A DNA stretch of 64,000 nucleotides from a virus (Duplodnaviria > Caudoviricetes): positions 1-64,000 of IMG/VR virus record IMGVR_UViG_3300001580_000013; one strand, 5' to 3'. Both the position numbers and the translations under genes were made by a program. The notes beneath the pieces are model-generated. The model was not told where the DNA came from. It saw nothing but the letters and a program-made list of their open reading frames with translations, and did not search any database. Shown piece after piece: positions 6,807 to 61,200 of the stretch. The number at the start of each line of letters is the position of its first letter. Position 1 is the first letter of the stretch.

Positions 6807-6837
6807 TTTAATTCTCCATTTCAAATTCAACATGGGA

Positions 6838-6866
6838 AATATAACACAATTTTGATCCAATGTCAA
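6838..6866 (-). promoter_or_regulatory. early sigma70-type promoter
   Basis: TTGACA (6866-6861), 17 nt, TATATT (6843-6838). Confidence 0.8.
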
Positions 6867-6884
6867 GGAAAAAGATTAAATTTT

Positions 6885-6892
6885 TATAAATA
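6885..6892 (+). promoter_or_regulatory. T4-type late promoter
   Basis: TATAAATA 23 nt upstream of baseplate operon. Confidence 0.8.
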
Positions 6893-22351: not shown

Positions 22352-22533
22352 TTAGTTTCTCCCTTATCTTCTTTTGTCATTTTATCATATAAATCCAATA
22401 GCAGTCTTAACGCATGATCTTTATTGAAAGTTTCTTCATACTCAGAGTGAGAACCCTTCCAACACCAATCACCAATTACAGAATCTACCAAAATACATTC
22501 TACTTCTTTTTCAAATTCTTTTTTACTTATCAT
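22348..22533 (-). CDS. hypothetical early protein (N-terminus shared with 25205-25429)
   Basis: MISKKEFEKEVECIL start. Confidence 0.7.
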   Translation of the reverse strand: MISKKEFEKEVECILVDSVIGDWCWKGSHSEYEETFNKDHALRLLLDLYDKMTKEDKGETK

Positions 22534-22560
22534 TTTGCTCTCCCATGATTGATTTACTGC

Positions 22561-22589
22561 AATATAAGAAATAAAAATTAAAATGTCAA
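22561..22589 (-). promoter_or_regulatory. early promoter
   Basis: TTGACA-17-TATATT. Confidence 0.85.
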
Positions 22590-22600
22590 GTAAAATATCT

Positions 22601-23781: not shown

Positions 23782-24045
23782 TTAGATTTTAATTCCAAGT
23801 TTCTTTTCAATTTCTTTTATCGTCATTACAGTTTCATTATCGTAACCAATAATTTCTTCTTTTTTAGTATCAGCAACAAAACTACACAATATTCTATTGT
23901 CATACTTGATCATACAATGTTTGCAATATGCACATGCGCCAGAATTTACCATTATAAGTGAATTATTGAGGTGTTCTCGGTGTGGACAGGGAGTTAAACA
24001 TTTATTACCATTCATTCGATACTTTATTTCTTCGACATCTTTCAT
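23782..24045 (-). CDS. hypothetical Cys-rich protein, C-terminus probably frameshifted
   Basis: C-terminal MTIKEIEKKLGIK matches 20329-20694 and then stops. Confidence 0.65.
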   Translation of the reverse strand: MKDVEEIKYRMNGNKCLTPCPHREHLNNSLIMVNSGACAYCKHCMIKYDNRILCSFVADTKKEEIIGYDNETVMTIKEIEKKLGIKI

Positions 24046-24066
24046 CTTTATTTCTCCTTTATTGTT

Positions 24067-24768
24067 TTATTTGTATAGAGCTTCAAATTGTTTTAATTTC
24101 TTCCAGCTATTGTTAACCATAAAAACATTTCCACTACTCATTGTCATACTACCATCATATTCAAAATATCTTTCAACATAATTTCTGAAAGGATAATATC
24201 TTATAACAATACCTTTATCAATCACTTTATCGAAGTATTCCAAACCATTAAACGAATTAGTCTCAAAATATTTCCAGCCATCAGCTATTAATTTTTGTTT
24301 TGTAATTAAATCATCTATTTTCAAAAATTCTGATAATTCTTCTGCTTCTTTGTAATCTATAAGAACACAATCCGTATATATTCTACCAGTTCTCAGATGC
24401 CAAAAAGCATATTTGATTCTTTCCCATAACATTGGCCATTTTGGAAGTCCGAGGAAATGTTTATCAGAGCAACCAGATTCATACAACGAGAAATTAAAAC
24501 CTAAGTGTTTTTCATCTTTCTCAATTCTAACAATTTCATTCCCACAACGACACTGTATGTATTTGACCTCATTTTTTACTTCTGGTGCTTTTGTTGATGG
24601 TGTTATTGTGTATGTTCCAGTGTATGTTTTAGTCCCCTCAGCACTAAAGGTATAATTTATATTAATGTTTTCTTCTCTTGGTTCTGGTTCACTTTTATTT
24701 TCTTTAATAATCACTGGTGGTCTAACTATAACCAACTTTGGATCACAAACAAACTTTTCATCTTTCAT
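24067..24768 (-). CDS. hypothetical protein
   Basis: Long ORF in operon. Confidence 0.7.
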   Translation of the reverse strand: MKDEKFVCDPKLVIVRPPVIIKENKSEPEPREENININYTFSAEGTKTYTGTYTITPSTKAPEVKNEVKYIQCRCGNEIVRIEKDEKHLGFNFSLYESGCSDKHFLGLPKWPMLWERIKYAFWHLRTGRIYTDCVLIDYKEAEELSEFLKIDDLITKQKLIADGWKYFETNSFNGLEYFDKVIDKGIVIRYYPFRNYVERYFEYDGSMTMSSGNVFMVNNSWKKLKQFEALYK

Positions 24769-25208
24769 TTCTTTCCTCTCATTTTATAGTAAATAGTTCC
24801 TTCAATTTCTTTTGTTTTCTCTAATTCTCTCATCCACTTTCTTTTCAATAAAATTTTCTTACCTTTTTTATATTCATACTTTCTTGTGTACCATAGAGAA
24901 CCATTTGTGTTATCAGGTATTAAATTGTAGTATATACTATCAGCTATTCCAATGCACTTCTTCAATGATCGTCTTTCTAATTTATTATCGCTTAATAATC
25001 TATTTTTGTGTAGTTCTATTTCTTCAGGATTATAACAAGAGAAATGTTTTGGATGAAATACTACACTCTCATAGCTATTTGTGAATAATCTACTATCTAC
25101 TCGGTTCTTAACAACCCAACCATGAGCAATTTTAGATTGGTAACCATCACCACCGGATTCAAAGAAAATAGTCAGTGCTAGCAGATATATATCAAAAAAT
25201 GCTCTCAC
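24765..25208 (-). CDS. cell wall hydrolase (SleB/Hydrolase_2 family)
   Basis: LALTIFFES...VVKNRV...VVFHPKHFSC...GSLWY. Confidence 0.85.
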   Translation of the reverse strand: MRAFFDIYLLALTIFFESGGDGYQSKIAHGWVVKNRVDSRLFTNSYESVVFHPKHFSCYNPEEIELHKNRLLSDNKLERRSLKKCIGIADSIYYNLIPDNTNGSLWYTRKYEYKKGKKILLKRKWMRELEKTKEIEGTIYYKMRGKK

Positions 25209-25429
25209 TTAATTAATTCTTGTATATAATTCACTGTGTAATAAGAACTGAGAACAAAGAAAATAAATGGTATCAGCCAATATAATAGTTTATATTCTCC
25301 TGTTTTGTTTACTATCATAGCAACAACTATTATTATGTTTTGTGCTGTAACCACGAAAAACAAACCCCACAGAACGGATTCCGCCAAAATGCACTCCACT
25401 TCTTTTTCAAATTCTTTTTTACTTATCAT
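25205..25429 (-). CDS. chimeric two-TM membrane protein
   Basis: First ~19 codons shared with 22348-22533, then hydrophobic. Confidence 0.6.
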   Translation of the reverse strand: MISKKEFEKEVECILAESVLWGLFFVVTAQNIIIVVAMIVNKTGEYKLLYWLIPFIFFVLSSYYTVNYIQELIK

Positions 25430-25457
25430 TTATTCTCTCCCATAATTGATTTATGGT

Positions 25458-25486
25458 AATATAAGATATACAAATTAAAATGTCAA
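25458..25486 (-). promoter_or_regulatory. early promoter
   Basis: TTGACA-17-TATATT. Confidence 0.85.
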
Positions 25487-25504
25487 GTAAAATCTTTAAA
25501 ATTT

Positions 25505-25512
25505 TATAAATA
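25505..25512 (+). promoter_or_regulatory. T4-type late promoter driving tnpB-1
   Basis: TATAAATA 7 nt before ATG, no SD. Confidence 0.75.
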
Positions 25513-25519
25513 TAAGTAT

Positions 25520-26728
25520 ATGATAAGAACGTCTAAACATATTCTCAAATTTGCCAACCAAAATAAATTAGATTTATTAGAACAAATTTATTTTGATTGT
25601 AAAAAGCAAATTGAAGTTTATATTGATCAAATTATATCGGCAAAGCTGGAATTAAGTAAGAGGATGAGCAGCAAATTGTTATCTAATGATTTCACAAAAA
25701 ACTCCGATTGGAAAAATTTATGTTATCAACAAGCTTCTTCCACCATCGGAAGTCAATACAAAAAAGCATCCAATAAAAGATTTAATTCTTACAAAAAGAT
25801 TTACACCAAACTAAAAGAACAAAATAGATATCAAAAATTTTTATCAAAGAAATTCTCTGAATTAAATTTAAAACCAATTCAACAAACAAAATATTTCACT
25901 AAACCAAAATTGAATAATGTAACTATAATTATTCCAAAAAATTTAATTAATTTCACTTCGGATTCTAAATCCTTTGATTCATTTATTAGATTAACTACAC
26001 CATATAAAAAATCCATTCATAGATATCAAACCATCAATATTCCAATAAAATATCATTTTCATTCCAATAAATTTAGAACTTCTGGGTGGAAGTTGAAAAA
26101 TTCTATTTCCTTGAACAAAGTTAATGATAACTTATACTTTGATTTATTTTGGGAGAAAGAGCAAGTTACAAAGAAAACAAAAGGAAAGCAAATAGGTTTA
26201 GATTGTGGTTATAAGAAGCTACTCATTTCATCAGAAAATAAAATATATGATTTGGGTATGAAGAAAATCTATAACAAACTATCCAGAAAGAAACAAGGAT
26301 CAAAGAATTTTAAGCAAGCATTAACTGAGAGAGATAATTTAATTAATCGAAGTATAAACAAGATAGAAATGGAAGAAATAAAAACAATTGTAGTTGAAGA
26401 TTTAAAGAATGTAAAGTTGGGAAGCAAATTTAGTAAAAAATTTAATAACAAGCTACAGAGATGGAGTTATCCAAAGGTTTTGGTGAAGCTATCTATGATT
26501 TGTGAGGAACAAGGAATAAACTTGGTTAGAGTTGATCCTGCTTATACAAGTCAAACATGTAGTAAATGTGGATTTAAAGATAAGAAAAACCGTTCTGGTG
26601 AACGGTTCTTGTGTTTGAGTTGCGGAATGACTATGGATGCTGATTATAATGCATCAATTAATATTTTGCATAGAGGCATATACAGTTCCTCTACCGAAAA
26701 TAATAAAGCTGATTTAAAGGTTAGCTGA
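25520..26728 (+). CDS. tnpB: RNA-guided endonuclease TnpB (copy 1)
   Basis: RuvC-I GLDCG, RuvC-II VVEDL, YTSQTCSKCG...CLSCG zinc finger, RuvC-III DADYNASINI; 402 aa. Confidence 0.93.
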   Translation: MIRTSKHILKFANQNKLDLLEQIYFDCKKQIEVYIDQIISAKLELSKRMSSKLLSNDFTKNSDWKNLCYQQASSTIGSQYKKASNKRFNSYKKIYTKLKEQNRYQKFLSKKFSELNLKPIQQTKYFTKPKLNNVTIIIPKNLINFTSDSKSFDSFIRLTTPYKKSIHRYQTINIPIKYHFHSNKFRTSGWKLKNSISLNKVNDNLYFDLFWEKEQVTKKTKGKQIGLDCGYKKLLISSENKIYDLGMKKIYNKLSRKKQGSKNFKQALTERDNLINRSINKIEMEEIKTIVVEDLKNVKLGSKFSKKFNNKLQRWSYPKVLVKLSMICEEQGINLVRVDPAYTSQTCSKCGFKDKKNRSGERFLCLSCGMTMDADYNASINILHRGIYSSSTENNKADLKVS

Positions 26729-26752
26729 CTGTAGAATACAAATTAATAGTAA
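26560..26752 (+). ncRNA. putative omegaRNA of tnpB-1 (5' end uncertain); guide ~26733-26752
   Basis: Hairpins TAGAGG/CCTCTA (26671-26693) and AGCTGATT/GGTTAGCT (26707-26726); identity with copy 2 ends at GACTGT (26732). Confidence 0.65.
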
Positions 26753-26764
26753 CATTTTATACTC

Positions 26765-27652
26765 CTATTTTAGTTTTTTCTGAATCATTTTTTTAGTTAT
26801 TCCGCTAATTTCTTCAAATGCTTTATAATCAAAGTTTGGAAGATTCAACAATAATTCAACATCTTCTTTACTCGCAAATTCAAATGATTTCTGAAAACAC
26901 TCTTTATATGTTTTACCAGCTTCTAAATTAAAATAAATAAAATTGGGTTTCTTAGACTCTTCCCATAACTTTCTATCACAATCTTTATTAAATATTCTAA
27001 CTGTTTCTGATTGTATAGTATTAAAGAAACCTGTTTCGTAATTACAATTATTCCAGTTACCCGTATTCCTGTTACCCGTATTCCAGTCACCTGTATTGCT
27101 GTCACCCGTATTCCTGTTACCCGTATTCCAGTCACCTGTATTGCTGTCACCTGTATTCCAGTCACCTGTATTGCTGTAACCTGTATTCCAGTTACCTGTA
27201 TTCCTGTCACCTGTATTGCTGTCACCCGTATTCCAGTCACCTGTATTCCAGTCACCTGTATTCCAGTCACCTGTATTGCTGTTACCTGTATTGCTGTTAC
27301 CTGTATTGCTGTTACCTGTATTGCTGTTACCTGTATTTCTGTTACCCGTATTGCTGTTATTATCATATTTGACAATAACTTCTTTTACAAATTTAAAAGA
27401 TTTACAAACATGTTTTTCTATTACACCAACAGAATCACCCTCTTCTAAATCTTCTGCTTCAATTTCAAAGATTCTATTTGTTTCCTTATCAATCCACATA
27501 TTCCAATATTCCGTTACATGATATCCTTTATTACACAAAGAAATATCATCAATTCTCGGAACTGATTTTCCGCTATTAACATATTCAGTGTAATCAAATG
27601 TTCCACCATCTTTCGCTTGCAAATCTTTGTTTAATACTTTGTAGAGTTTCAT
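26765..27652 (-). CDS. NTG-type pentapeptide-repeat protein
   Basis: 20 x NTG[NDY][RSW]; conserved phage N- and C-terminal flanks (GYHVTEYW; LPNFDYKAFEEISGI). Confidence 0.85.
   Translation of the reverse strand: MKLYKVLNKDLQAKDGGTFDYTEYVNSGKSVPRIDDISLCNKGYHVTEYWNMWIDKETNRIFEIEAEDLEEGDSVGVIEKHVCKSFKFVKEVIVKYDNNSNTGNRNTGNSNTGNSNTGNSNTGNSNTGDWNTGDWNTGDWNTGDSNTGDRNTGNWNTGYSNTGDWNTGDSNTGDWNTGNRNTGDSNTGDWNTGNRNTGNWNNCNYETGFFNTIQSETVRIFNKDCDRKLWEESKKPNFIYFNLEAGKTYKECFQKSFEFASKEDVELLLNLPNFDYKAFEEISGITKKMIQKKLK
27053..27352. repeat. 15-bp coding tandem repeat, 20 units
   Basis: Units like cctgtattccagtca / cctgtattgctgtta. Confidence 0.95.
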
Positions 27653-27682
27653 TTTATTCTCTCCTTTTTTAAATTCAATAGT

Positions 27683-27711
27683 AATATAAGATATTTTTAA
27701 CTAAATGTCAA
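27683..27711 (-). promoter_or_regulatory. early promoter
   Basis: TTGACA-17-TATATT. Confidence 0.85.
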
Positions 27712-28531
27712 GGATTATTTGTATTGCTTCAAATTTTTTATTTTCAAATGGATAGCCAACTGGATTTGATATAAATTTAGTATCACCAAATAAATATTCC
27801 TGCTTAACATGTGTATGACCATAAATCCAATATTTCGCATTAGAGTATTCTGCGAAACCCATTCCGTTGAAGAAATATGCTCCTGTAAGTAAATCATATT
27901 TGTAAGGTTCATAAGCAAAGAATGGCTCGTTTAAAGGGCTAATATGGGTAACTATAATATCAACTTGGTCATATACCTTAGATATTTTCTCCTTATCCGA
28001 AAATGACCACGCTTGCATATTTTCCCAAGTTAATTGCTCTGTGTCTTTTATCATTCCTTTAATGTAATTACCATCATTCATATTTCTATACCAATACTTC
28101 ATTATATTAACCGCTGTCATACAAGGATTTAATTTCTGTGTATAAGAAAAATCATACCAACCAGTACAACCCGATATTCTTACTCCATCAATTTCTTCAA
28201 TTTGACCATCGAGAACAATTACTCCAAGTTTTTTAATTTCTTCCACAAGATATTTAGCTCTGATTTCATAATTATCAAATTTATCGCTTTCAGAATTAGA
28301 GAAATAGTGATCGTGGTTGCCCAAAACTACCAAAATCTTCTGATAATAATATCTCTTTAAATGTTTTAGAAAACTTAGTGTATCAGCTATAGAATTAGAA
28401 ATATCACCAGCAATGATAATATTATCAGATTTTGGTTTAATAAAATTTTTAATATAAAGACCAATCTTCCGTGGATTATTCGCGGTATGATGAGTGTAGT
28501 GAAGGTCTGATATTATGTCAAATTTAGTCAT
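27701..28531 (-). CDS. calcineurin-like metallophosphoesterase
   Basis: SDLH, AGDI, GNHD, VTHISP, YGHTH motifs. Confidence 0.9.
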   Translation of the reverse strand: MTKFDIISDLHYTHHTANNPRKIGLYIKNFIKPKSDNIIIAGDISNSIADTLSFLKHLKRYYYQKILVVLGNHDHYFSNSESDKFDNYEIRAKYLVEEIKKLGVIVLDGQIEEIDGVRISGCTGWYDFSYTQKLNPCMTAVNIMKYWYRNMNDGNYIKGMIKDTEQLTWENMQAWSFSDKEKISKVYDQVDIIVTHISPLNEPFFAYEPYKYDLLTGAYFFNGMGFAEYSNAKYWIYGHTHVKQEYLFGDTKFISNPVGYPFENKKFEAIQIILDI

Positions 28532-28533
28532 TA

Positions 28534-28956
28534 TTAAATCTTATCAAAAAGTTGTTTGTTGGTTATAATATTATTTGTATATCCGAGTTCTCTTTCTTCT
28601 GTAAGATATTCATGTACCAATTGATTAACTGCTATTATGTTTGTATCTGTTGATATATTATCATGAAGATTTTCAAAAGCTCTCATAAGTTCTTGTCTAT
28701 CTTTTTCAGTAGGTACTATTATTTTATAGCTAACATAATCTTCTTGTTTTGGGTCTTCATCATCTGCATATCTTTTCGGTGCTATACACAAATCTTCATA
28801 TCTACAATAATGGTCATATCCATACGAAAGATTATCCCACTTTACCAAACAACCATCTTTGGAAGTTTTACCAACAACACCCTCCAAATCTTTAAGCCGT
28901 TTATGGCATACTCTTGTTTTGCCAGATTCCAAATATTTTATTTCGTTATTGTTCAC
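28534..28956 (-). CDS. hypothetical protein
   Basis: ORF with AGGAG SD. Confidence 0.65.
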   Translation of the reverse strand: MNNNEIKYLESGKTRVCHKRLKDLEGVVGKTSKDGCLVKWDNLSYGYDHYCRYEDLCIAPKRYADDEDPKQEDYVSYKIIVPTEKDRQELMRAFENLHDNISTDTNIIAVNQLVHEYLTEERELGYTNNIITNKQLFDKI

Positions 28957-28957
28957 C

Positions 28958-29515
28958 TTAATTCTCCTTATTCAAAATATTTACAGCAATTTCGATATGC
29001 TCTGTTGTTAAACCATGCCACCAAGAAGTATGAATAAATTTATCTTTTTGTCTATACAACATATCAGAATCATCGTCCAAAATTACATATCTAACTTGTT
29101 CTCTAACACTATACTCAGGATGAGTATGATATAAATATGCCTCTATTTCTAAACCTCTTGGAAGTGAAGGTGCTCTATCATTAAATGGCATATTTGCCTC
29201 TATATCATTCCACCATAATCTGGGTGTTATTCCTACTACATTTCCTTTTACTCCAGCATAAGCAAGAATTTCTTTTATACTGGGCATAGAACGCCAAGTT
29301 GAAGAAACTACAATATCTGCTTGTGTTTGTTCGATAATTTTATTCAGAACATCGACAGCTTTTGGGTCAAATTCCCATTTGTGATATTCTTTATCATCCA
29401 TATCCTGTGCTCTTGCTCTCCATTCAGGATATCTTTCTTTATACCAATCTTCCGAGTTCAAAACCCCGTCCACTCAAACATCCAAAAAAATTATTTTTGT
29501 AATTTTCTCAGACAT
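28958..29515 (-). pseudogene. HAD phosphatase (HAD_SAK_2, Swiss-army-knife RNA-repair type) with in-frame TGA in the DxD motif
   Basis: AGGAGG + ATG 29515: MSEKITKIIFLDV*VDGVLNS; IVVSSTWR, RGLEIEAYL, YVILDD. Confidence 0.8.
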
Positions 29516-45522: not shown

Positions 45523-46587
45523 CTAATATATTTTAAATTCAAAATTGCGGCATGATAATATGCAAGCTTTTTCTTTTAGTAAATTTTTTTCTAAATCTCG
45601 TTTCATAGTCCATGTAGATTTAACTTCTACTATTTTATTTTCTTTTGGAATATAGAAATCTGGAAAATATTTATGTTTCTTCCCATCTTTAGTATAATAC
45701 CATATCTTTCCAATTATATCTTGAGTTGGATGAACAATTATATCTTCCTCTGATCCCTTATTATAGAAATATTCATCGAGATATATTCCTTCGTATCCTT
45801 GAATTTTAACTACCTTTCCAGATGGCATGATATAATCTTTCCATTTAAACGCTGATCTGGAACACTTATCAAATATTCCTTGATCTTGCATAGGGTTTTC
45901 TACCCCGTACTTCTCGATACATGTATTTTTAATTTTTTCTTTCATTTCATCATTTTGAAGGTGACACCGTGTACCGAAATTATCCATACATGTTTTTTTT
46001 GATTTTTCCTTATTTACTTCCGCTTGTAGGGGATTATCTGTTCCATAATGTTCTCTACAGGTATTTGTTTTCTTTTCTTTTATTTCTGCACTTTGAGAAA
46101 CATTATCAACACCATATTTTTCGCGAATAGTCTGTTGTTGTTTTTTATATATATCTTTATTTTGTAAAGGATTTTCAAAACCGTATCTCTTTAAATTTGT
46201 TTGTTTAACTTTTTCTCGCATTTCGTTGGATTGAGAAGAAAATTCTACACCATATTTATCCATACAAGTTTTTTTACTTTTTTCTCGCATTTCTTTGCTT
46301 TGCATAATATTTTCTACACCATATTTTTGCAAATTTGTTTCTTGCCGTGCTTTTACCTGACAGTCAACACTACCGCACGATTGACTATACCCATGTGCGA
46401 TATCAATAAACATTTTATCGTTTGAACAATATTTGCATTTTTTATCTGATACATTTTGTAAAATATAAGTGTCATAATATTGCTGTTTCGTTATTTCCGG
46501 ATGAGAATGAACAATATGATATGAAAAAGAAAAATTATTTTTACATTCTTTTCCACATATTTTACATATTATTTTATCTTGAACCAT
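45523..46587 (-). CDS. putative homing endonuclease (KYGVEN repeats + C-terminal PD-(D/E)XK)
   Basis: N-terminal Zn fingers, 7 x ~24-aa KYGV(E/D)N repeats, YFPDFYIPKENKIVEVKS. Confidence 0.75.
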   Translation of the reverse strand: MVQDKIICKICGKECKNNFSFSYHIVHSHPEITKQQYYDTYILQNVSDKKCKYCSNDKMFIDIAHGYSQSCGSVDCQVKARQETNLQKYGVENIMQSKEMREKSKKTCMDKYGVEFSSQSNEMREKVKQTNLKRYGFENPLQNKDIYKKQQQTIREKYGVDNVSQSAEIKEKKTNTCREHYGTDNPLQAEVNKEKSKKTCMDNFGTRCHLQNDEMKEKIKNTCIEKYGVENPMQDQGIFDKCSRSAFKWKDYIMPSGKVVKIQGYEGIYLDEYFYNKGSEEDIIVHPTQDIIGKIWYYTKDGKKHKYFPDFYIPKENKIVEVKSTWTMKRDLEKNLLKEKACILSCRNFEFKIY

Positions 46588-49914: not shown

Positions 49915-50184
49915 CTATTTTATTTCATCTACTTTTGCATTCTCTTCTGCCATTGGAAGTTTTTTAAACGCATTGTACGTGAGTGTGAGCATCCACGCAG
50001 CCATGAGTCCATCCGGAACTGTAAAATATTCTTTTATTATATCAGCATATTCTACTCCACCGATCCACAAAAATATAAACTTCCCCACCCAAAAATAAAT
50101 TAAAATGACAAGAAGAATCCAAAATGAAATTCTTCCCATAGAAATGTCTTTATTATTTTCTGAAATCAAACTCTTATAATTCAT
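49915..50184 (-). CDS. two-TM membrane protein, holin candidate
   Basis: SMGRISFWILLVILIYFW + second TM, charged C-terminus; ATG 50184. Confidence 0.55.
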   Translation of the reverse strand: MNYKSLISENNKDISMGRISFWILLVILIYFWVGKFIFLWIGGVEYADIIKEYFTVPDGLMAAWMLTLTYNAFKKLPMAEENAKVDEIK

Positions 50185-50360
50185 AGTCACAGTCAGCTAA
50201 CCTTTGAATTAGCTTTATTTTCAGTAGAGGAACTATAAATGCCTCTATGTAAAATGTTTATAGATGCATTGAAATCAGCATCCACAGTCCTTCCACAACT
50301 CAAACATAAAAACTTTTCTAACTTCCTATTGTCTTTGTGTTTGTGCCCACATTTGCTACA
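50169..50360 (-). ncRNA. putative omegaRNA of tnpB-2 (5' end uncertain); guide ~50188-50169
   Basis: Hairpins at 50225-50247 and 50195-50214 homologous to copy 1; shared end GACTGT (50194-50189). Confidence 0.65.
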
Positions 50361-51401
50361 TGTTTGACTTGTATAGGCTGGATCAACTTTTATAAAGTTT
50401 ATTCCATTCTCTTCACAAATCATAGATAGTTTATTCAAAACCTTTGGATAACTCCATCTCTGTAGCTTGTTGTTAAATTTCTTTGAAAACTTTGATTTTG
50501 ATTTTACATTCTTTAAATCTTCTACCACTATAATTTGTATATTTTCTGTTTCTATTTTATTGATAGATTGATTTATTAAATTATCTCTCTCAGTTAATGC
50601 TTGCTTAAAATTTTTGCTTCCTTGTTTCTTTCTTGATAGTTTTTGATATATTTTCTCCATACCCAAATCATATATTTTATTATCTGAACTTATTAATAAT
50701 TTCTTATAACCGCAATCTAAACCAATTGATTTACCGCTCAATTTCCTCACAAGTTCTTCTTTCTCCCACAGCAAATCAAAGTAAAAATTATTGTTAACTT
50801 TGTTCAACGATATAGAATTTTTTAATTTCCAACCAGATGTTCTAAATTTATTTGAATGAGAATGATATTTGATGGGGATGTTAATTGTTTGATAGTGATA
50901 ATTGTCTTTAGTGTGATATGGTGTAGTTAATCTAATAAATGAATCAAAGGATTTAGAATCTGTGGTGAAGTTAAACAATCTTTCGGGTAATATTATGGTT
51001 ACATTATTTAATTTTGGTTTGGTGAAATATTTTGTTTGTTGAATTGGATTTAATTTTAATTCCGAGAATTTCTTAGATGTAAATTTATTATGTCTATTCT
51101 GTTCTTTCATTTTAGCATAAATTCTTCCATAAGCTTTAAATCTTCTATTAGAAGCTTTCTTATACTGACTCCTTATAATTTCAGAAGCTTGTCCGTAACA
51201 CAACTGTCTCCAACGAGAGTCTGTAATAAAATCTGAAGATAATAATTTAGATGTCATATTCTTTTTTAATTCAAGTTTATCGGATACAATTTGATCAATA
51301 TAAACTTCAATTTGTTTCTTGCAATCAGAATAAATTTGTTCAAGCATATCTAATTTATTTTTGTTCGCGAATTTTAGTATGTGTTTACTTCTTCTTATCA
51401 T
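50193..51401 (-). CDS. tnpB: RNA-guided endonuclease TnpB (copy 2)
   Basis: GLDCG, VVEDL, CSKCG/CLSCG, DADFNASINI; start MIRRSKH at 51401 gives 402 aa like copy 1. Confidence 0.93.
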   Translation of the reverse strand: MIRRSKHILKFANKNKLDMLEQIYSDCKKQIEVYIDQIVSDKLELKKNMTSKLLSSDFITDSRWRQLCYGQASEIIRSQYKKASNRRFKAYGRIYAKMKEQNRHNKFTSKKFSELKLNPIQQTKYFTKPKLNNVTIILPERLFNFTTDSKSFDSFIRLTTPYHTKDNYHYQTINIPIKYHSHSNKFRTSGWKLKNSISLNKVNNNFYFDLLWEKEELVRKLSGKSIGLDCGYKKLLISSDNKIYDLGMEKIYQKLSRKKQGSKNFKQALTERDNLINQSINKIETENIQIIVVEDLKNVKSKSKFSKKFNNKLQRWSYPKVLNKLSMICEENGINFIKVDPAYTSQTCSKCGHKHKDNRKLEKFLCLSCGRTVDADFNASINILHRGIYSSSTENKANSKVS

Positions 51402-51406
51402 ATTTT

Positions 51407-51414
51407 TATTTATA
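51407..51414 (-). promoter_or_regulatory. T4-type late promoter driving tnpB-2
   Basis: TATAAATA-AAAAT-ATG. Confidence 0.75.
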
Positions 51415-51862: not shown

Positions 51863-52414
51863 TTATAAATTAACTCCAACGAAATATAATAAAGGTAAAA
51901 TTAAACTGTAATCATAAAACCTATCGCTGTAGGGATATGGTTTTCCAAACATCCAATAAGTAGTCATTGTTAACCTATGTTTAAAGCTGTTGAACATTGT
52001 ATAATTCATAACTCTTTTGTAAATCCAATTTCCGATTAGCCACCAAGCCGATAATAAAAAGAAATCCATTCCACCAATTAAAAACATAATAAACGGAATA
52101 GAAAATTCTAATCCCCGAAATGTGTGATAATCTATAATTATATTTTTAATTATTAAATTTGATTTATCATAAATTTTTCTATTTATCCATATATATACAG
52201 CAAACATAATGGTATAGAGCGATTGTACGATGAGTGAATATTGTAAGGTGATAAACGCAATCGACAATACAAAAAAATTGACTATATTAAACCACGAATT
52301 TTTTGATAATTTCCAGAATATAATATTCTCTTTTTTCCACTGCAAACCTTCACGAACTCCTGATGAGAAAAAGATTAATAATACTAATAGTGAATATATA
52401 TAATTTTGATTCAT
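51863..52414 (-). CDS. multi-pass membrane protein
   Basis: 4-5 hydrophobic segments. Confidence 0.6.
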   Translation of the reverse strand: MNQNYIYSLLVLLIFFSSGVREGLQWKKENIIFWKLSKNSWFNIVNFFVLSIAFITLQYSLIVQSLYTIMFAVYIWINRKIYDKSNLIIKNIIIDYHTFRGLEFSIPFIMFLIGGMDFFLLSAWWLIGNWIYKRVMNYTMFNSFKHRLTMTTYWMFGKPYPYSDRFYDYSLILPLLYFVGVNL

Positions 52415-53514
52415 TGTATCTCCTTTATTTTAATTCCGGGTTCCCAACCATCATTTAAATATTTCTCAAGTTCTGATTCATGTATTTGTGTTCTTTTTTG
52501 TAATTTATCGTTATGAACCCATTTAAACCCTTTGGTGGTTCCCACTAATTCTCCAGTTTTTAATCTTGGGTCATTTTCATCAACTTGTATATATTTTCTT
52601 GATATAGTATCAAACATATTCTTTTTCTTTGCCATTACACCAACTAATTCACCACTTATCCATCTTGGGTCATTTTTATCTACTTGAAATATATTTCCAT
52701 CTTTGTCTTTTGATTGAATTTTTCCTTTACAGATGTGTACCAGTTCTCCATTAGATATTCTCGGGTCATCTTTATCTACTTGAATGGTGTTGCCTTCTTT
52801 ATCTTTAACAACCGCCTTGCCTTTAAAACAACTAACCAACTCACCACTCAACCATCTCTCGTCTGTTTTATCAATTTGAAAGGTGTTGCCATCTTTATCC
52901 TTGACAGTTACTTTTCCCGTGGTCATGTGAACCAATTCCCCACTCGTATATCTGTTATCAGTTGTAGAAATTGAAAGAAATTTACCATTCTCATCTTTTA
53001 CAATAACTTTTTCTTTCGTTATAGATTCTAATTCTCCATCGGCTATTCTTGGGTCGTCTTTATCAACTTGAAAAGTATTTCCGTCTTTATCTCTGACAGC
53101 ACCCATTCCTTTAAAACAACTAACCAACTCACCACTCAAATATCGTTCATCGTGTATTGAAACTTGTGAAGTGTTACCATCTTTGTCTTTTACACTAACC
53201 ATTCCAATATTCTTATATCCAATATCTCCATTCCCACCAAGAGTCATATTATAAGTGTCATCTCTCCTAAGTAAATCTCTATTAATGAGTTCTTTTTCTT
53301 TTAATATCATTTCTTCTTGTGTATCAAACACAAATAATATTTCTTTTTTAAAATTTTCTTTTCCATATTTTTTAATTGCTCGTTTAATACCGATACCACT
53401 ACCCAAATATTTATCATCGACATTCTTTGTTTTGTGCATACCGATATAAAATTTACCATTAATAATATTAGTTATTTTATATATCGTGTAAAATATTTTC
53501 TTTTCTTCGTTCAT
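52411..53514 (-). CDS. GIY-YIG homing endonuclease (Seg-like) with seven 32-aa repeats
   Basis: YTIYKITNIINGKFYIGMH...YLGSG...F.KEIL...E...YN..LGG; repeats VKDKDGNTFQVDKDDPR..SGELV. Confidence 0.9.
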   Translation of the reverse strand: MNEEKKIFYTIYKITNIINGKFYIGMHKTKNVDDKYLGSGIGIKRAIKKYGKENFKKEILFVFDTQEEMILKEKELINRDLLRRDDTYNMTLGGNGDIGYKNIGMVSVKDKDGNTSQVSIHDERYLSGELVSCFKGMGAVRDKDGNTFQVDKDDPRIADGELESITKEKVIVKDENGKFLSISTTDNRYTSGELVHMTTGKVTVKDKDGNTFQIDKTDERWLSGELVSCFKGKAVVKDKEGNTIQVDKDDPRISNGELVHICKGKIQSKDKDGNIFQVDKNDPRWISGELVGVMAKKKNMFDTISRKYIQVDENDPRLKTGELVGTTKGFKWVHNDKLQKRTQIHESELEKYLNDGWEPGIKIKEIQ

Positions 53515-55229: not shown

Positions 55230-58200
55230 CTAATTGATAATAAAATCAATACTATTACTAACCGAATTAAATTTCATAACAGCATTTGTACCCATTCTAA
55301 ATTCTGTTGCTTCTATATCACCAGTTGTTTCAATATCAGAAGTTCCTGCATCTATCGTTCCTGCTACTGCATTTATTATTTTATCTCCACTTTCTAATGT
55401 AATATCGCCAACTACAGTTAAATCAGAAGTAGTCCGTACTATACCAGCACCTTTAGGAACTAATTCAATATCATAATCTGTTCCAATTCCTTTGGCTTTC
55501 CACTGATTTTTCAGAGTATCTTGGTCTTCTTCAAAATGTTCAAATAACCTATCCAATGTAATATTCACAGCAGGATAATCTAACTGAGAATTGTAAGTTC
55601 CACCACCGTGTATTAGAACATTTTGAGTTGTTAATGGTGAACCACTTCTTTTTGCTTTTACTCTTATTGCTAATTTATCTCCAGCAACAAAAGTATGTTG
55701 AACATCCGCAGTCACAACGAAAGTATAAGCCTCAATATTAGTTGCAAGTGGAGCTACTATTTCTGCTGATGAATAAGTATGTAATATTGTTCCTACACTA
55801 TCCAAAACTAATAAATCAACTTGGAATGTTACTCCTCTATTTGCAGTTGTTTTTTGCAAGTAAAGATAAGATTCAAATCTATCACCAATTTCAATAGAAG
55901 TCCTGTAATTCATAGCATCTTCAAATTCAATCCAAGTTTCTAACTCTGTTTGAGTATCCTGTGAAACTGAATAAGTATTAGAAAATGATGCTTGTGCTGT
56001 CAAACTTAATAATTTATTTATTCCACTATCTGTATTTGTTAAATATGCAATTCTGTCTTGGTAAACACTTAGAGCGTTTTTTAATCTTTGCTCTGTTATA
56101 TATTCAGCATTTCTATATGAAGTGGCTGTTGAAACTCTTTCGGCTTCCCACATTTTAGTTACGCCATCACCTTCAACTTGGAAAGCGGGTCTTAAATCAT
56201 TATGGGCAGAATAAACAGCCAATCTCGTATTAGTATGACGACAAATTGAACTCAACTCAGCAGGAGTAGAATAAGCGGTAACAGGAATTAATCTTAGCCA
56301 ATAACCTTCTGTGCCATCAATAGTCTTTTTAGCCCAATCCACAAATTCTGTATTATCCCATATTATATCACCATTTGCTGTAAGGTTTGTTGTTGAATCT
56401 ATAGCATTTGGAACATCAACCCAAGCATCAGAACTATTCAAATATTGAACTTTAAAAGTACCACCAACGCCATATTGTGATAATATAACATTGACAGCAC
56501 TCCATTTTGAAGCATTTCCAAGATAAAGATAATGGTCGGTATCTCCTAATATTTCAAAACTATCAGCTATACTACATTGAGTTGTTGCTGATTTGTAAGT
56601 ATAATCTATAAAAGTTGAACCAGCATCCTCAGAAACCATGACTCTGTGTATCATAGGAGGTTTGATATCCATTGTACTTGGTGGGTCTTGTGAGAATCCT
56701 CTTACAGACCAAGTATCCGTTAAACTATGACCAGTTGTTGCTCCAAAAGTTATATAAACACCTTCTCTTAATTCATAAGGAGTAATTTGACAAGGAATAA
56801 GAGTTCCACCAGAAGTCCAAGTTGAACCTGTTCCGCCAGCATTGATTAAATATTCCCATCTGAAAGTATCGGGTGTTCCTACACTATCAATATAAATTCT
56901 GAAAGCTGTTGTTGTATTTCCTTCAAAATTTCCACTTGCAGTTACATCATTTAATCCTGTTCCATTATAAGCTACATAAGGACTTACTAAACTTATTGGT
57001 CTATTAAATCCAAATCTACCATTTCTACTTATTACTAAAGGATTTTCTTGGCTATCTAAATTGTAAAAATACATAAATCGAGCATCTTCGTTTCTCCAAG
57101 CACCTTGAATAGCCCATTTATCTACACCATTGTCCTTGAACACAATTTGTTTATCAGTATCAACTGCACCATCAAGGAATAAACCATTTTCTTGTAAATT
57201 ATCACCACCCAAATCAGTGTCATCTGTCGCGTTTATAGTTACATCACCTATGAAATTATGAGTTGTTTTTACTATAACACCAGCTTTATCCACATAATAA
57301 CCATAATCGAGTGAATTTATTGTTGGATTCTTTCCACTTAAAGTAGCAGATATAACATTAACACTATTCATTGATATTTTACTATTTGTTGTTTCTAAAT
57401 CCGCAAATAAAGAAATAGAACCATTTGAATTGAATTGAATATTAATATCTTTGTCAGTACTACTAATAAAAAGTTGGTTGTCTTGGAACGGGTCTAAGTA
57501 TATTTCGTTATACATAGTTCCGCTACCATAAAGATACGCATCCCACAGGCTTATACCACCAACAGATTCAATATATTTTGGTGTTGGTAATGCACCTTCT
57601 TCTCCAATAAATATATTTCCTTTTAAATGAGCAGAATAATAGTCATCAAATCCCAATATACTATCATTTACAATAAGACCGTTTGAAGTTATTTTTTTAT
57701 CTGTTTCAACGTTTCCATCTCTATCAATGCTAACTAAGCTATCATATCCTTTTATAGCAAAAGTATATTCAGTAGAAACCTCATAAGCACTATAACCCGC
57801 AGGAATCGCTTGGTCAACTAATGGAGTTTCTAAAATATCCCAACCCTCTGACAAATGTTTATGAATGTATAATCTATGTTCGTCATATATACCTGTAAAA
57901 TATTCGAGATAAGACTCACAATTATCATTCGGATTTTCTTGGTTTATTGCATCTTTGGTAACCACTCTTAATTTTTCTATCTGTGAATATTGATAACCTT
58001 CCATAGAAGTTGAGTGTAAAATATGGATAGATACTCCAGATTTATTTCCTATATCAGAAGTAACCGTAAATATTAAACTTCCATTCTGTCTGCAATAACC
58101 GTCTGGAGGAGCTGGAATAGTATTCAGCCAATCACCACCATACCGTATTTCAAACATTGCGTGAGAAGTGCTTGAACTATTAGGACAAGTTGCTATACGA

Positions 58201-61200
58201 ACCCATTTACCAATAGAACTAACGCCCATTAAATTACATTGAAATCCTTCATCAACTTTATTTCCTCTAATATTTTCCTTTGCTATTATAGAACTTTCAA
58301 CCTCTAAATCCCAAATTTGTGTAAGATAATCTGAATTACATCTCCACATATAGTATCCGTCTTCAAACTCATTGTATCGTTCTAATTTAAACCAATTTCT
58401 GCCTTCATCATCTTTATCTTCTCCGAGCAACCAAAGAGGAACAGAACCATCACCAACATCACCAAATTTTATTATGTTATCTGCTGTTGGGTGGTCTATA
58501 TTTGCTGATTGGGCTTTAACATTCCCCTCCCCATTAACATTAAATACAGTTTCACCCGCATAGTTATTAACTTGGAATACATCAAGCGCATCTCCACCAA
58601 CCTGCCCATTCTGAAATGTTACACCATCTCTTGTAGCATCAGTTACAATTTCACCAACAGGAGAATTGTTATATGCTTGTTGTAAAGTAGTTGTACCGCC
58701 AATTCCGCCAATACTCTGATTAACTTCACCAAATCTATTTAGTTCTATAAATTTTGCTTGTAATGGGTTGGATAAGTCTGTGGCATTTTTTGAAACTACT
58801 ATAACACCTCTGAATAATCCGTTCTCTGCTATATTTTGTTCTACCGCAAACACTTCTGTATTAACTGCGGCAAGAGCATCTGCCATATTTTTATATACTG
58901 CTTGACCATATTGAATACGAATTAAATTAGATGAAAATAATGCTACTCTCATTATACTAAATTCGTATGGAGCAGTAATAGCAGTTTTTACGCCGTTGCG
59001 GTCATAGTAACCAACATCTAAGGTATTTGTGTCTAATCCCTCTGGTGTTAATAGAGTTATACTTCTTGTTCTGTGTCTCAAAGTGGCTGGAGCACTCAAA
59101 CTATCCAAAAATTTTAAATTTGGATTATCTGAACCATTTAGTTCATGGAAATTTACACCTTTTTTGAAAATCTCACCAGAAGATTTGTTTAGATACTTGT
59201 TGACTCCATTCGCAGATATAATATTGCCATTAACATTAAAAACTCTTATAGCATCAAGTAAATCGTTATATTGACCTGCCACGTTCTTCGCCACATCTGG
59301 CATACTATTGAAAGCATTTATTGTTGTCATATTACTATGAATTACTGCACCAATTAATATGTAGTTTCTTCTATCTGTTGGCGTAAAAGGACTCGAACTT
59401 TGAACAATCTGAGTTAATCCGATTGGTTGTGAATAATCCAAAGCAATATATGTAACTAATTGAGTTGTTAAATTTGTAAGCGGTATCTCATCTAATTCTG
59501 CAAATTGAGTAACACCATCTTCTAAGGAATAATATGAACCTGCTGTAATTTTAAATTTTGTAGTTGGAGCAAGAGTAGCAATATCAAGTTTCATTCCATT
59601 CTTAACACCATTAGTAACAAGTGTACGGTCAGCATCATCTAATCTGTTTATAGTGTTTTCATCAATAAAATCAAAAGAAGTATTATTGAATGCTGAAGTA
59701 ACTATTGTAGTGTTATTACCTTTTCTGACTATTATTCTTCCAGCTAACATTCCTAAACTTTGAAATGGTGGGGGTAATTCGGAAACATCTGGAGCAGGAA
59801 TTTCCATAACATTAGTAAATTTATATGGAGTATTACCTAATAATATACAAGCGTGTTTTGTTCCATCTGTTAAAACTGCTCTATAAACCCAGTTAATAGC
59901 ATAATCGTTCCAAGTAGGTAATTCGGCTAAACCAGTAGCTACATCATTATATTGAGAGTTGTTATATTTAGTTGCGGCTTCTCTGTACCATTCAGTACCG
60001 ATCTTATACCATATATAACAAGTATCTACCGAACTATCAAAGGAGTCAACAAAATATCTATGAACCCTACCTCTCCAAATATAACCTTCTGAAAGTATTA
60101 TTTTTCTATCGGCGTCATTTGAAGCAGATAATTCCATTCCACTTTCTGCTGTCCATCTTTCAGTCCTAACCAAACCGTCAGCAATTTTATTTGCTAATCC
60201 TTGAGATGCTAAATCCCAATTAACTTCAAAAAATGAAATTTCTCCATCCATATCCATTCTGTAAATTGTATAGATTGGGATTATTTTTAATTGGTCTATA
60301 AGATGCGGAGCTTCTCTTGTCTGATATACTTCTACAGATTCTGTATTGCCATCAAATACTATGTAATTGATACTATTTGCGACTAAAGTTAAAGTTTGTT
60401 CTGCTATTTCGTATCTTAATAGAGGAAGCGCACCATTAATATCTGAATAAACATTATAAGTTCCGGCTGAAAGTATCATGTTTCCTGTTTTGACACCGCC
60501 AACTTCTTCTGCTGTTATGGAAGGTAAAGTTCCCGTTACTCCGGCCGTATGATTTATATTTCGTATATTATAATAATCGAGTTGTCCTGCTGGCGCATTT
60601 CCATGTTCATAAGTGTCATAAGCAGAGTCTAAATCTATATATTTAGTTTCTATATCATTCGCTGTTAATTTGTTAGTTCCCAAATCTACATCTTTATTAG
60701 CACCAGTGTAAGGAATAAAACCAGATAAATCTTGATTTTGAGATTTTTGCCAAACTGTTCCATTATACATTACCCAATCGCCAACTTTAAACTCTATCAA
60801 TTCTCCGTCAAATGTTTGAGAACCCTCTACGGAAGTTACATAAAAATCTCCAGTGTTTCCCGTTCCATCTATAAGAGTTGGTGTATTTGTTAAAGCATTC
60901 CAAGTTCCTTTATATTCTATAACACTATCTGGTAATTGTGATGGGTCTATTTTACCATTTATTAATCCCGGATATCCATTAGTTTGATTTTTTTCTGAAA
61001 GAAGTTGATAGTTCCCCACAACACTTCCAGTATAATCTATAATTTTGTTGGATGTCCATAGATCGGTATTTGTAGTACCGGTATCGTTTATTTTGTATAT
61101 GAATTTAAAGTTTGTTTGATCAAAACTTAATATATTTCCATTCACATCATAATTAGTTGAATCAACATCAAACAATTTCGTCAGATAATAATTACTCATG

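Follow-up and report, generated by a model that had tools for sequence, protein, structure and literature searches.

Transposase-less TnpB cassettes in a T4-like phage genome as natural candidates for RNA-guided homing genes

The stretch of DNA analyzed here, a window of 64 kilobases (kb), is the first part of an 87,741-bp IMG/VR viral contig (G000; 30% G+C) that encodes a T4-type portal and large terminase and belongs to a T4-like phage. At the locus of interest lies a cassette, c1, consisting of a phage-type late-promoter motif, an intact open reading frame (ORF) for a TnpB protein, and a defined right end, and oriented on the plus strand between neighbours that both lie on the minus strand (Table 1). 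The protein scores 73.8 bits against Pfam PF07282 (Cas12f1-like_TNB; cut-off 26.3) and 103.2 bits against NCBIfam NF040570 (guided_TnpB; cut-off 100). Its three RuvC residues and the four cysteines of its zinc finger are invariant among 26 homologues, and E293 and D375 align to the corresponding catalytic residues, E and D, in AsCas12f. An AlphaFold (AF2) model (predicted local distance difference test, pLDDT, 85.9; predicted template modelling score, pTM, 0.71) is matched by Foldseek to AsCas12f (E=2.5e-16), ISFba1 TnpB (1.2e-13), and ISDra2 TnpB (3e-11), as well as to mimivirus Fanzor2, and the predicted Cas12f/TnpB fold spans the whole protein. The tail, residues 387 to 402, is predicted to be disordered, and hairpins of the RNA scaffold described below lie in its codons. 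A first-pass annotation of this DNA had proposed an intact TnpB gene inserted against the direction of its surroundings, and both points stand: triad and zinc finger, profile scores, and fold all agree. By profile, residues, fold, and 3' scaffold, c1 is a nuclease of the TnpB/OMEGA type (OMEGA standing for obligate mobile element-guided activity), with cleavage activity predicted. As a separate observation, a G+C-rich hairpin (AACCGTTC..GAACGGTT, 26585-26610), terminator-like on the minus strand, lies inside the zinc-finger codons of c1; 3'-end alignments place it in c1 and in one further copy, P3, and not in the other copies.

We found that c1 is one of at least six tnpB copies in this phage, whose genome is roughly 165 kb, a count that amends the earlier description. 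Four of the six (c1 to c4) lie on the 87.7-kb contig and two (P3 and P4) on the remainder of the genome, which is found on a 128-kb ENA contig (identical) and a 75-kb IMG/VR companion contig; CheckV completeness is 47% for the 87.7-kb contig and 40% for the companion. One contig considered as a separate phage (L005) turned out to be another part of c1's own genome. All six ORFs are open, with every catalytic and zinc-binding residue present, and the proteins are 79 to 85% identical to each other (80% between c4 and c1). Synonymous divergence (dS) between copies is 0.7 to 1.2 for all pairs (about 0.9), and the ratio of nonsynonymous to synonymous divergence (dN/dS) is 0.11 to 0.18, or 0.13 to 0.16 when c1 is compared with the others, suggesting that each copy has long been kept functional, unlike a dead relic. 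Judged by these substitution patterns, the copies are old and each is under purifying selection.

Together with P6 (L011), a copy from another phage contig of the same sample, the six copies form one clade with 100/99 support that is star-like internally. The nearest neighbour of a copy varies along the gene among c1 to c4, P3, P4, and P6, with local identity of up to 95%: for example, c4 and P4 are 95% identical over nt 1 to 120, c1 and c2 92% over nt 181 to 300, and c1 and P3 90 to 93% over nt 841 to 1200. Such switching indicates gene conversion among the dispersed copies. A single origin of the form without the transposase gene tnpA is not recoverable from this star-like tree of mosaic copies. 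Elsewhere, a weak TnpB-like match (L016, G001:C1:13218-13442; 36% over residues 272 to 345, E=4.5e-6) lies in a 273-aa open frame and may be a seventh copy, degraded or very distant.

The right end of the cassette is sharp. In all copies, homology between them halts at the terminus GACTGT, 4 nucleotides (nt) past the c1 stop codon, and a terminus of the form RACTRT (AACTAT or GACTGT) is found family-wide, autonomous elements included, 4 to 63 nt past the stop in most relatives. It is preceded throughout the family by an outer stem, GCUAA/UUAGC, with a variable and optional inner hairpin. The position of the stop codon within the terminal motif differs among three relatives (L011, L017, and L019), yet the motif is kept, suggesting that the constraint acts on RNA or DNA and not on protein.

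Consistent with this, the 3' end of tnpB appears to encode an omegaRNA scaffold. Among the aligned genes, synonymous-codon identity is 0.70 overall but 0.86 to 0.97 in three blocks within the last 95 codons (alignment codon 313 and later), and folding of the last 260 nt gives z=-4.6 relative to shuffles. In an RNAalifold analysis of 44 family members, the first scaffold hairpin was retained with compensatory double changes in six of its seven pairs; one of these pairs, for example, is A-U in 26 members, G-C in 16, and C-G in 2. The loop of this hairpin is predicted to form a pseudoknot with the last 5 nt of the terminus (ACURU in the family), a pairing conserved family-wide. When hairpin and pseudoknot were tested together, 98.7% of cells were paired compared to 84.6% in shuffles and 36 to 62% in slid controls, full pairing of the pseudoknot helix being partly built in because the terminus was picked by motif. 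Double-change cells numbered 80 compared to 23 in shuffles, and none of 500 shuffles reached either value. Moreover, at the variable pseudoknot pair, a C in the loop occurs only with a terminal G (C-G in 4, U-G in 7, and U-A in 33 members). No omegaRNA family of Rfam, RAGATH-18 included, matched the window or 10 relatives.

The putative guide begins directly at the right end, and its placement in the first-pass annotation fits the sharp end of homology. Its first 12 nt, the scaffold-proximal part, have no second occurrence in the phage DNA searched. For the P4 guide, a 13-nt match at G000:82044 is attributed to chance. At c4, the right end is followed by 4 nt and then by the ATG of a gene for an 89-aa membrane protein (49915-50184, minus strand), an arrangement compatible with insertion of the cassette between this gene and a late promoter serving it. 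Just beyond the c4 right end, the hexamer GACTAT resembles the terminus GACTGT.

On the left side, the motif TATAAATA stands only 7 nt before the ATG of c1, as noted earlier and confirmed by the coordinates, and no Shine-Dalgarno sequence is present in this 5' end. The total count of the motif is at chance level (18 vs 16.9 expected). Its significance comes instead from its position and its conservation before diverged copies: 11 of 25 occurrences lie within 30 nt before the ATG of an ORF of at least 50 aa, compared to 3.4% expected (p=2e-10), and TATAAATA-N5-7-ATGATAAGA is kept in c1, c3, c4, and P4 and, on other contigs, in the relatives L011, L017, and L019 despite dS of about 0.9 or more. 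By position, then, the motif before c1, c3, c4, and P4 is a late-promoter motif of the T4 type, from which transcription is predicted. The spacing of T4 late promoters would put the transcription start at or next to the ATG, which, with no Shine-Dalgarno sequence, suggests that the tnpB mRNA is probably leaderless.

The adjoining flank carries the phage's own early promoter. A sigma-70-like early promoter drives leftward genes beginning at 25429 and is part of a unit of about 110 nt that occurs twice, 3 kb apart and about 90% identical (22464-22596 and 25360-25493), comprising the opening codons of a small gene that runs leftward (MISKKEFEKEVECIL...), a ribosome-binding site, and TTGACA-N17-TATATT. 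Within the copy at 22464-22596, which has no tnpB, the 110-nt repeat occupies 22488-22596. Homology between the c1 left flank and this cassette-free paralogous unit ends at 25493, 11 nt before TATAAATA, suggesting an insert of about 25494 to 26732. The repeated unit resembles the mobile early-promoter cassettes of T4-type phages. In addition, a divergent promoter unit, in which the early -35 element and the late motif lie back to back, precedes two ordinary late genes (at 1358 and 6885) and three tnpB copies (c1, c3, and P4). The left flanks of these three copies share the phage early -35 element, and those of c2 and P3 share a TGAC(C/T)CCC stretch.

The ancestry of the cassettes can be traced through remnants at two of the copies. 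A 68-aa ORF overlaps the start of c2 (ATGA); its counterpart at P3 is 66 aa long and shares 57% identity with it. The 68-aa stub is not directly recognized by Pfam and NCBIfam profiles; it matches residues 1 to 51 of resolvase-domain proteins of 191 to 196 aa at 67 to 78% identity, and these proteins score 167 to 171 bits on NCBIfam transpos_IS607 (cut-off 110). One of the stub homologues belongs to a complete tnpA-tnpB element, whose TnpB is only 29% identical to that of this phage. By these matches, the stubs at c2 and P3 are helix-turn-helix (HTH) remnants of the serine-recombinase TnpA. Upstream of the stub, c2 and P3 have about 80 nt in common, among them a TATAAATA of their own, and the tnpA-less copies do not have the portion to the left of that TATAAATA.

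Mapping the neighbourhoods of relatives, we found a full-length IS607 tnpA directly upstream in 13 of 79 viral loci of this TnpB family, in some cases overlapping tnpB, and solo tnpB in the others. Most of the 506 relatives of the clade in IMG/VR are likewise solo, and some contigs carry an autonomous and a solo copy together (L115 and L112, on one contig). Stubs and relatives thus support descent of the cassette lineage from IS607, not from the IS200/IS605 insertion sequences (ISs). The hallmarks of the latter are not found at c1, which has no Y1 (HUH) TnpA and only about 25 nt between flank and ATG, and given the IS607 ancestry, the earlier argument that there is no room for an IS200/IS605 left-end hairpin is beside the point. 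The GG termini of IS607 are not seen either, since the cassette right ends are GACTGT or AACTAT. Searches detected neither a Y1 transposase (PF01797) nor a resolvase domain in the 87.7-kb contig, and the 75-kb companion yielded no IS607 TnpA; upstream of tnpB, the serine-recombinase TnpA is absent at c1, and HTH stubs of 66 to 68 aa occur only at c2 and P3. The claim that the cassette is free of a transposase gene therefore survives a search of 163 kb, with remnants only outside the window, beside c2 and P3.

Close relatives of the phage were sought at several levels. A nucleotide search of GenBank phages with positions 24000-29000 returned nothing, and searches of IMG/VR with the flanking metallophosphoesterase, endolysin, and ligase recovered only the phage itself. 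For the pentapeptide-repeat neighbour of c1, 190 viral relatives and 451 from metagenomes were recovered; identity is 55 to 59% for the best, and none of them shares synteny with the c1 locus; one contig considered as a syntenic relative (L034) was a coincidence. The right flank and the guide had no exact match in IMG/VR or in JGI metagenomes. Overall, IMG/VR, JGI metagenomes, GenBank phages, and GTDB genomes yielded no close relative of the phage. For TnpB itself, relatives of at least 66% identity are on viral or metagenome contigs only, and among 185,579 prokaryote species genomes identity does not exceed 48%. In another phage (L132, IMGVR_UViG_3300034375_009655), a family member lies within an array of more than 10 tRNA genes.

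Table 1. Features of cassette c1, of further copies, and of their promoter surroundings; positions are those of the window unless a contig is named
Feature	Position	Strand	Remarks
Cassette 5' end	25494..25519	+	A/T-rich run, TATAAATA (25505-25512), 7-nt spacer
tnpB c1, 402 aa	25520..26728	+	Intact ORF
RuvC residues of c1	D228 = 26201-26203, E293 = 26396-26398, D375 = 26642-26644	+	From alignments
CxxC..CxxC zinc finger of c1	C347, C350, C365, C368	+	From homologue alignment
Putative omegaRNA scaffold	26456..26732	+	Last 273 nt of ORF plus 4 nt; 5' limit approximate
Scaffold hairpin 1 (UAGAGG.A / U.CCUCUA)	26671..26693	+	Loop ACAGU (26682-26686) pairs with terminal ACUGU
Scaffold hairpin 2 (AGCUGAU..GUUAGCU)	26707..26726	+	Equals family outer stem GCUAA/UUAGC; kept in L011, L017, L019
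Right-end terminus GACTGT	26727..26732	+	Overlaps TGA stop; end of homology between copies
Putative guide	26733..26752	+	Adjoins right end; intergenic, before stop (26765) of convergent pentapeptide-repeat gene
c2 tnpB	G000 72524-73732	+	
c3 tnpB	G000 65458-66678	-	
c4 cassette	50189..51414 (ORF 50193-51401)	-	TATAAATA-N5-ATG, 402-aa TnpB, GACTGT end
Early promoter TTGACA-N17-TATATT, sigma-70-like	25458..25486	-	Best local match, 11/12; flank, not cassette
Divergent promoter unit	1298-1365, 6825-6892, 25445-25512		Early -35 (ATGTCAAGTAAAA on +, TTGACA on -), 10-12 nt, TTTTATAAATA
Further divergent promoter units	L003:2704-2800(-), L010:9915-10000		
GIY-YIG segE-like homing endonuclease gene	52411-53514	-	TATAAATA-N5-ATG layout, as in tnpB cassettes

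We propose that c1 would be a degenerate IS607-family OMEGA element that has lost tnpA and most of its left end and retains a T4-type late promoter abutting the ATG, TnpB, an omegaRNA in the last ~270 nt, and the GACTGT end. The first-pass annotation had already described a unit reduced to late promoter, tnpB, and omegaRNA, and this description is supported for a late-promoter motif, tnpB, and an omegaRNA in the 3' end of the ORF, with no transposase and with purifying selection on the copies. The RNA would run on into the flanking 16 to 20 nt, which would serve as the guide. When a relative without the cassette co-infects, the TnpB-omegaRNA complex would, late in infection, cleave that relative's genome at the same locus, at a site where a transposon-adjacent motif (TAM) adjoins the guide-matching flank, and the recombination machinery of the phage would repair the break from the cassette-bearing genome, thereby copying the cassette in. 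Such copying would amount to "non-restorative" homing that needs no TnpA, and marker exclusion would accompany it as a by-product. The phage encodes a break-repair set of RecA/UvsX-like, UvsY, UvsW, gp32, and SbcC-like proteins; clamp loader, DNA ligase, and ribonucleotide reductase genes are also found on the rest of its genome, together with those for gp32, UvsY, UvsW, and the RecA/UvsX-like protein. That the cassette is transcribed, that its RNA is processed, that a TAM exists, and that cutting and copying take place are inferences.

TnpA-independent homing is the simplest selfish explanation for the cassettes, to which we assign a probability of roughly 0.5, and the cassettes make good candidates for naturally occurring viral homing genes that are guided by RNA. 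We put forward more tentatively, and with somewhat more doubt than belief, that a phage-restricted, IS607-derived TnpB clade dropped transposition and that its members now act as RNA-guided free-standing homing genes, in which the leaderless late transcript would be both mRNA and guide precursor and flanking markers would be driven along as well.

Several points weigh against the homing explanation. A cassette-free allele or junction was found in none of IMG/VR, JGI metagenomes, GenBank phages, and GTDB. Homing reaches only the same locus in another genome, so that the six loci need another cause; they may have been colonized by past TnpA-driven transposition, of which the stubs would be the trace, or by recombination at the repeated promoter units. 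The 163 kb in which no intact tnpA was found leave about 13% of the genome outside the search, and a host could supply TnpA. Comparison of the flanks gave no common left-end motif or TAM. Moreover, the occurrence of the divergent promoter unit before ordinary late genes makes the left boundary ambiguous, and the late promoter may be owned by the phage, with the cassette just behind it. Gene conversion blurs the copy tree, and conversion between copies could itself help to preserve their intactness.

The external supply of TnpA leads to a different explanation, in which the cassettes are non-autonomous IS607 derivatives moved in trans by TnpA of the host, of a co-infecting phage, or of the unsequenced part of the genome, and TnpB only re-cuts the vacated donor site (restorative homing). 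The composition of the IS607 family fits this well: complete tnpA genes lie upstream in 13 of the 79 viral relatives, an autonomous element stands beside a solo copy on the contig of L115 and L112, c2 and P3 keep a left end and a tnpA stub, and the right end required for recombination is intact in every copy. We nevertheless consider such mobilization unlikely, since the tnpA-less copies do not have the left-end stretch of the stub copies, dS of about 0.9 between copies leaves no trace of recent transposition, no tnpA occurs in the 163 kb, and none of the prokaryote species genomes holds a close relative.

Alternatively, the copies could have been domesticated by the phage to exclude rivals without copying themselves, to serve as an addiction module, or to process or regulate nearby late transcripts. 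Long-term purifying selection on every copy and the position of copies behind the phage's own late-promoter motif are compatible with this, as is the placement of c4 between a late promoter and the membrane-protein gene whose start coincides with the c4 guide, and both competitor killing and toxin-antitoxin-like maintenance have been discussed for TnpB (PMC13565253). However, the guides are the cassettes' own flanks, with first 12 nt that match nowhere else in the genome, and the nuclease residues are intact, in contrast to the known domesticated regulators of the TldR type. Domestication is hard to separate from homing, since exclusion and homing are two outcomes of one cut, but on this evidence we hold it to be improbable. 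That the cassettes are inert relics of old insertions with no present activity, as the missing transposase, the age of the copies, and the lack of any polymorphism found might suggest, is very hard to reconcile with six of six ORFs being open and keeping every residue for catalysis and zinc binding, with dN/dS of 0.11 to 0.18, and with an RNA structure conserved with compensatory changes.

Other features of the genome were seen alongside the cassettes. At 45523-46587(-) lies a gene for a DUF7487 protein, one region of which is like the TnsA endonuclease, and the stretch that contains this gene and the segE-like gene is rich in mobile nucleases. The motif TATAAATA also stands in front of an ORF of 2459 aa (55230-62609, minus strand), presumably a giant structural protein. 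The pentapeptide-repeat gene next to c1 (26765-27652, minus strand) contains internal tandem DNA repeats, especially at 27049-27359, with self-matches at a 45-nt offset and 88% identity.

Solo tnpB genes are generally common, and the role of TnpB as a homing nuclease is established. Homing by the cassettes is a plausible idea whose concept has already been published (PMC13565253, PMC11870625). The new elements here are the IS607 ancestry read from the stubs, the genome-wide count of copies, the selection on each copy, the scaffold supported by covariation, the family-wide RACTRT end, a close clade confined to viral and metagenome contigs, and the ambiguous ownership of the promoter. If TnpA-independent homing is true, lytic phages would have in the cassettes a natural gene drive guided by RNA. 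TnpB would then be shown to last long without any transposase, and the frequent TnpB-only elements in large phage genomes would be explained. The clade comprises compact nucleases of ~400 aa with the entire scaffold within the ORF and a defined 3' end, so that the guide could easily be swapped for testing.

A close precedent dates from 2010, when the T4-like Campylobacter phages CP220 and CPt10 were reported to carry TnpB-only ISs (ISCaje1-3) at several sites (PMC2853527). As in the phage studied here, these are multiple diverged tnpB-only elements scattered in a T4-like myovirus genome, and an annotated 80-aa remnant in CP220/CPt10 is similar to H. pylori OrfA, an IS607-type TnpA (PMC2853527). 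In contrast to the present cassettes, ISCaje1-3 were classed as IS200/IS605, before the RNA guidance of TnpB was known, and one of the genomes also holds a tnpA-bearing element; the study included no promoter, omegaRNA, or homing analysis (PMC2853527). ISCaje TnpB is only about 28 to 30% identical to c1 TnpB over half its length. Compared to IS607 itself, the likeness lies in the stubs, which match the TnpA N-terminus, and in the relatives with tnpA overlapping tnpB, whereas the phage cassettes have no catalytic TnpA and end in RACTRT instead of the GG of most IS607. The RNA reported for IS607 TnpB is RAGATH-18, to which the cassettes have no match, and the TAM of most IS607 is AGGAG or GAGGG (PMC13565253).

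Homing by TnpB has been described in several forms. Restorative homing is credited to Meers et al. 2023 as cited in a later review (PMC13565253). In 2025, TnpA-independent, TnpB-driven spread of IS605 was demonstrated in plasmid populations (PMC11870625), following the same scheme as proposed here: a flank-derived guide, a cut in the allele that lacks the element, and repair templated by the copy that has it. That system consists of engineered E. coli plasmids carrying a complete IS605 (PMC11870625), whereas the phage cassettes are natural, transposase-less, present in a lytic phage, and known from sequence alone. The term "transposon non-restorative homing" appears in a 2026 review, where such homing in phages is counted as a theoretical possibility (PMC13565253). 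The TnpB of IStrons that lack TnpA offers another parallel, in that it remains intact after TnpA loss, which was taken to imply homing (PMC13565253); unlike IStrons, the phage cassettes have no group I intron.

In genomic habit, the cassettes also resemble the seg and mob genes, the free-standing homing endonuclease genes of T-even phages. Like them, the cassettes are intergenic, often antiparallel to their neighbours, and preceded by a late-promoter motif in a recombination-proficient phage, and the resident segE-like gene has the same TATAAATA-N5-ATG layout as the cassettes. The difference is that target recognition by the cassettes would be by RNA and that their nuclease has a RuvC fold. 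If TnpA-independent homing is true, the cassettes would join research on the homing endonucleases of T-even phages with that on the ancestors of Cas12, the OMEGA/TnpB proteins, which are commonly studied separately. Should the clade also have dropped transposition altogether, it would be the first natural RNA-guided counterpart of seg and mob genes.

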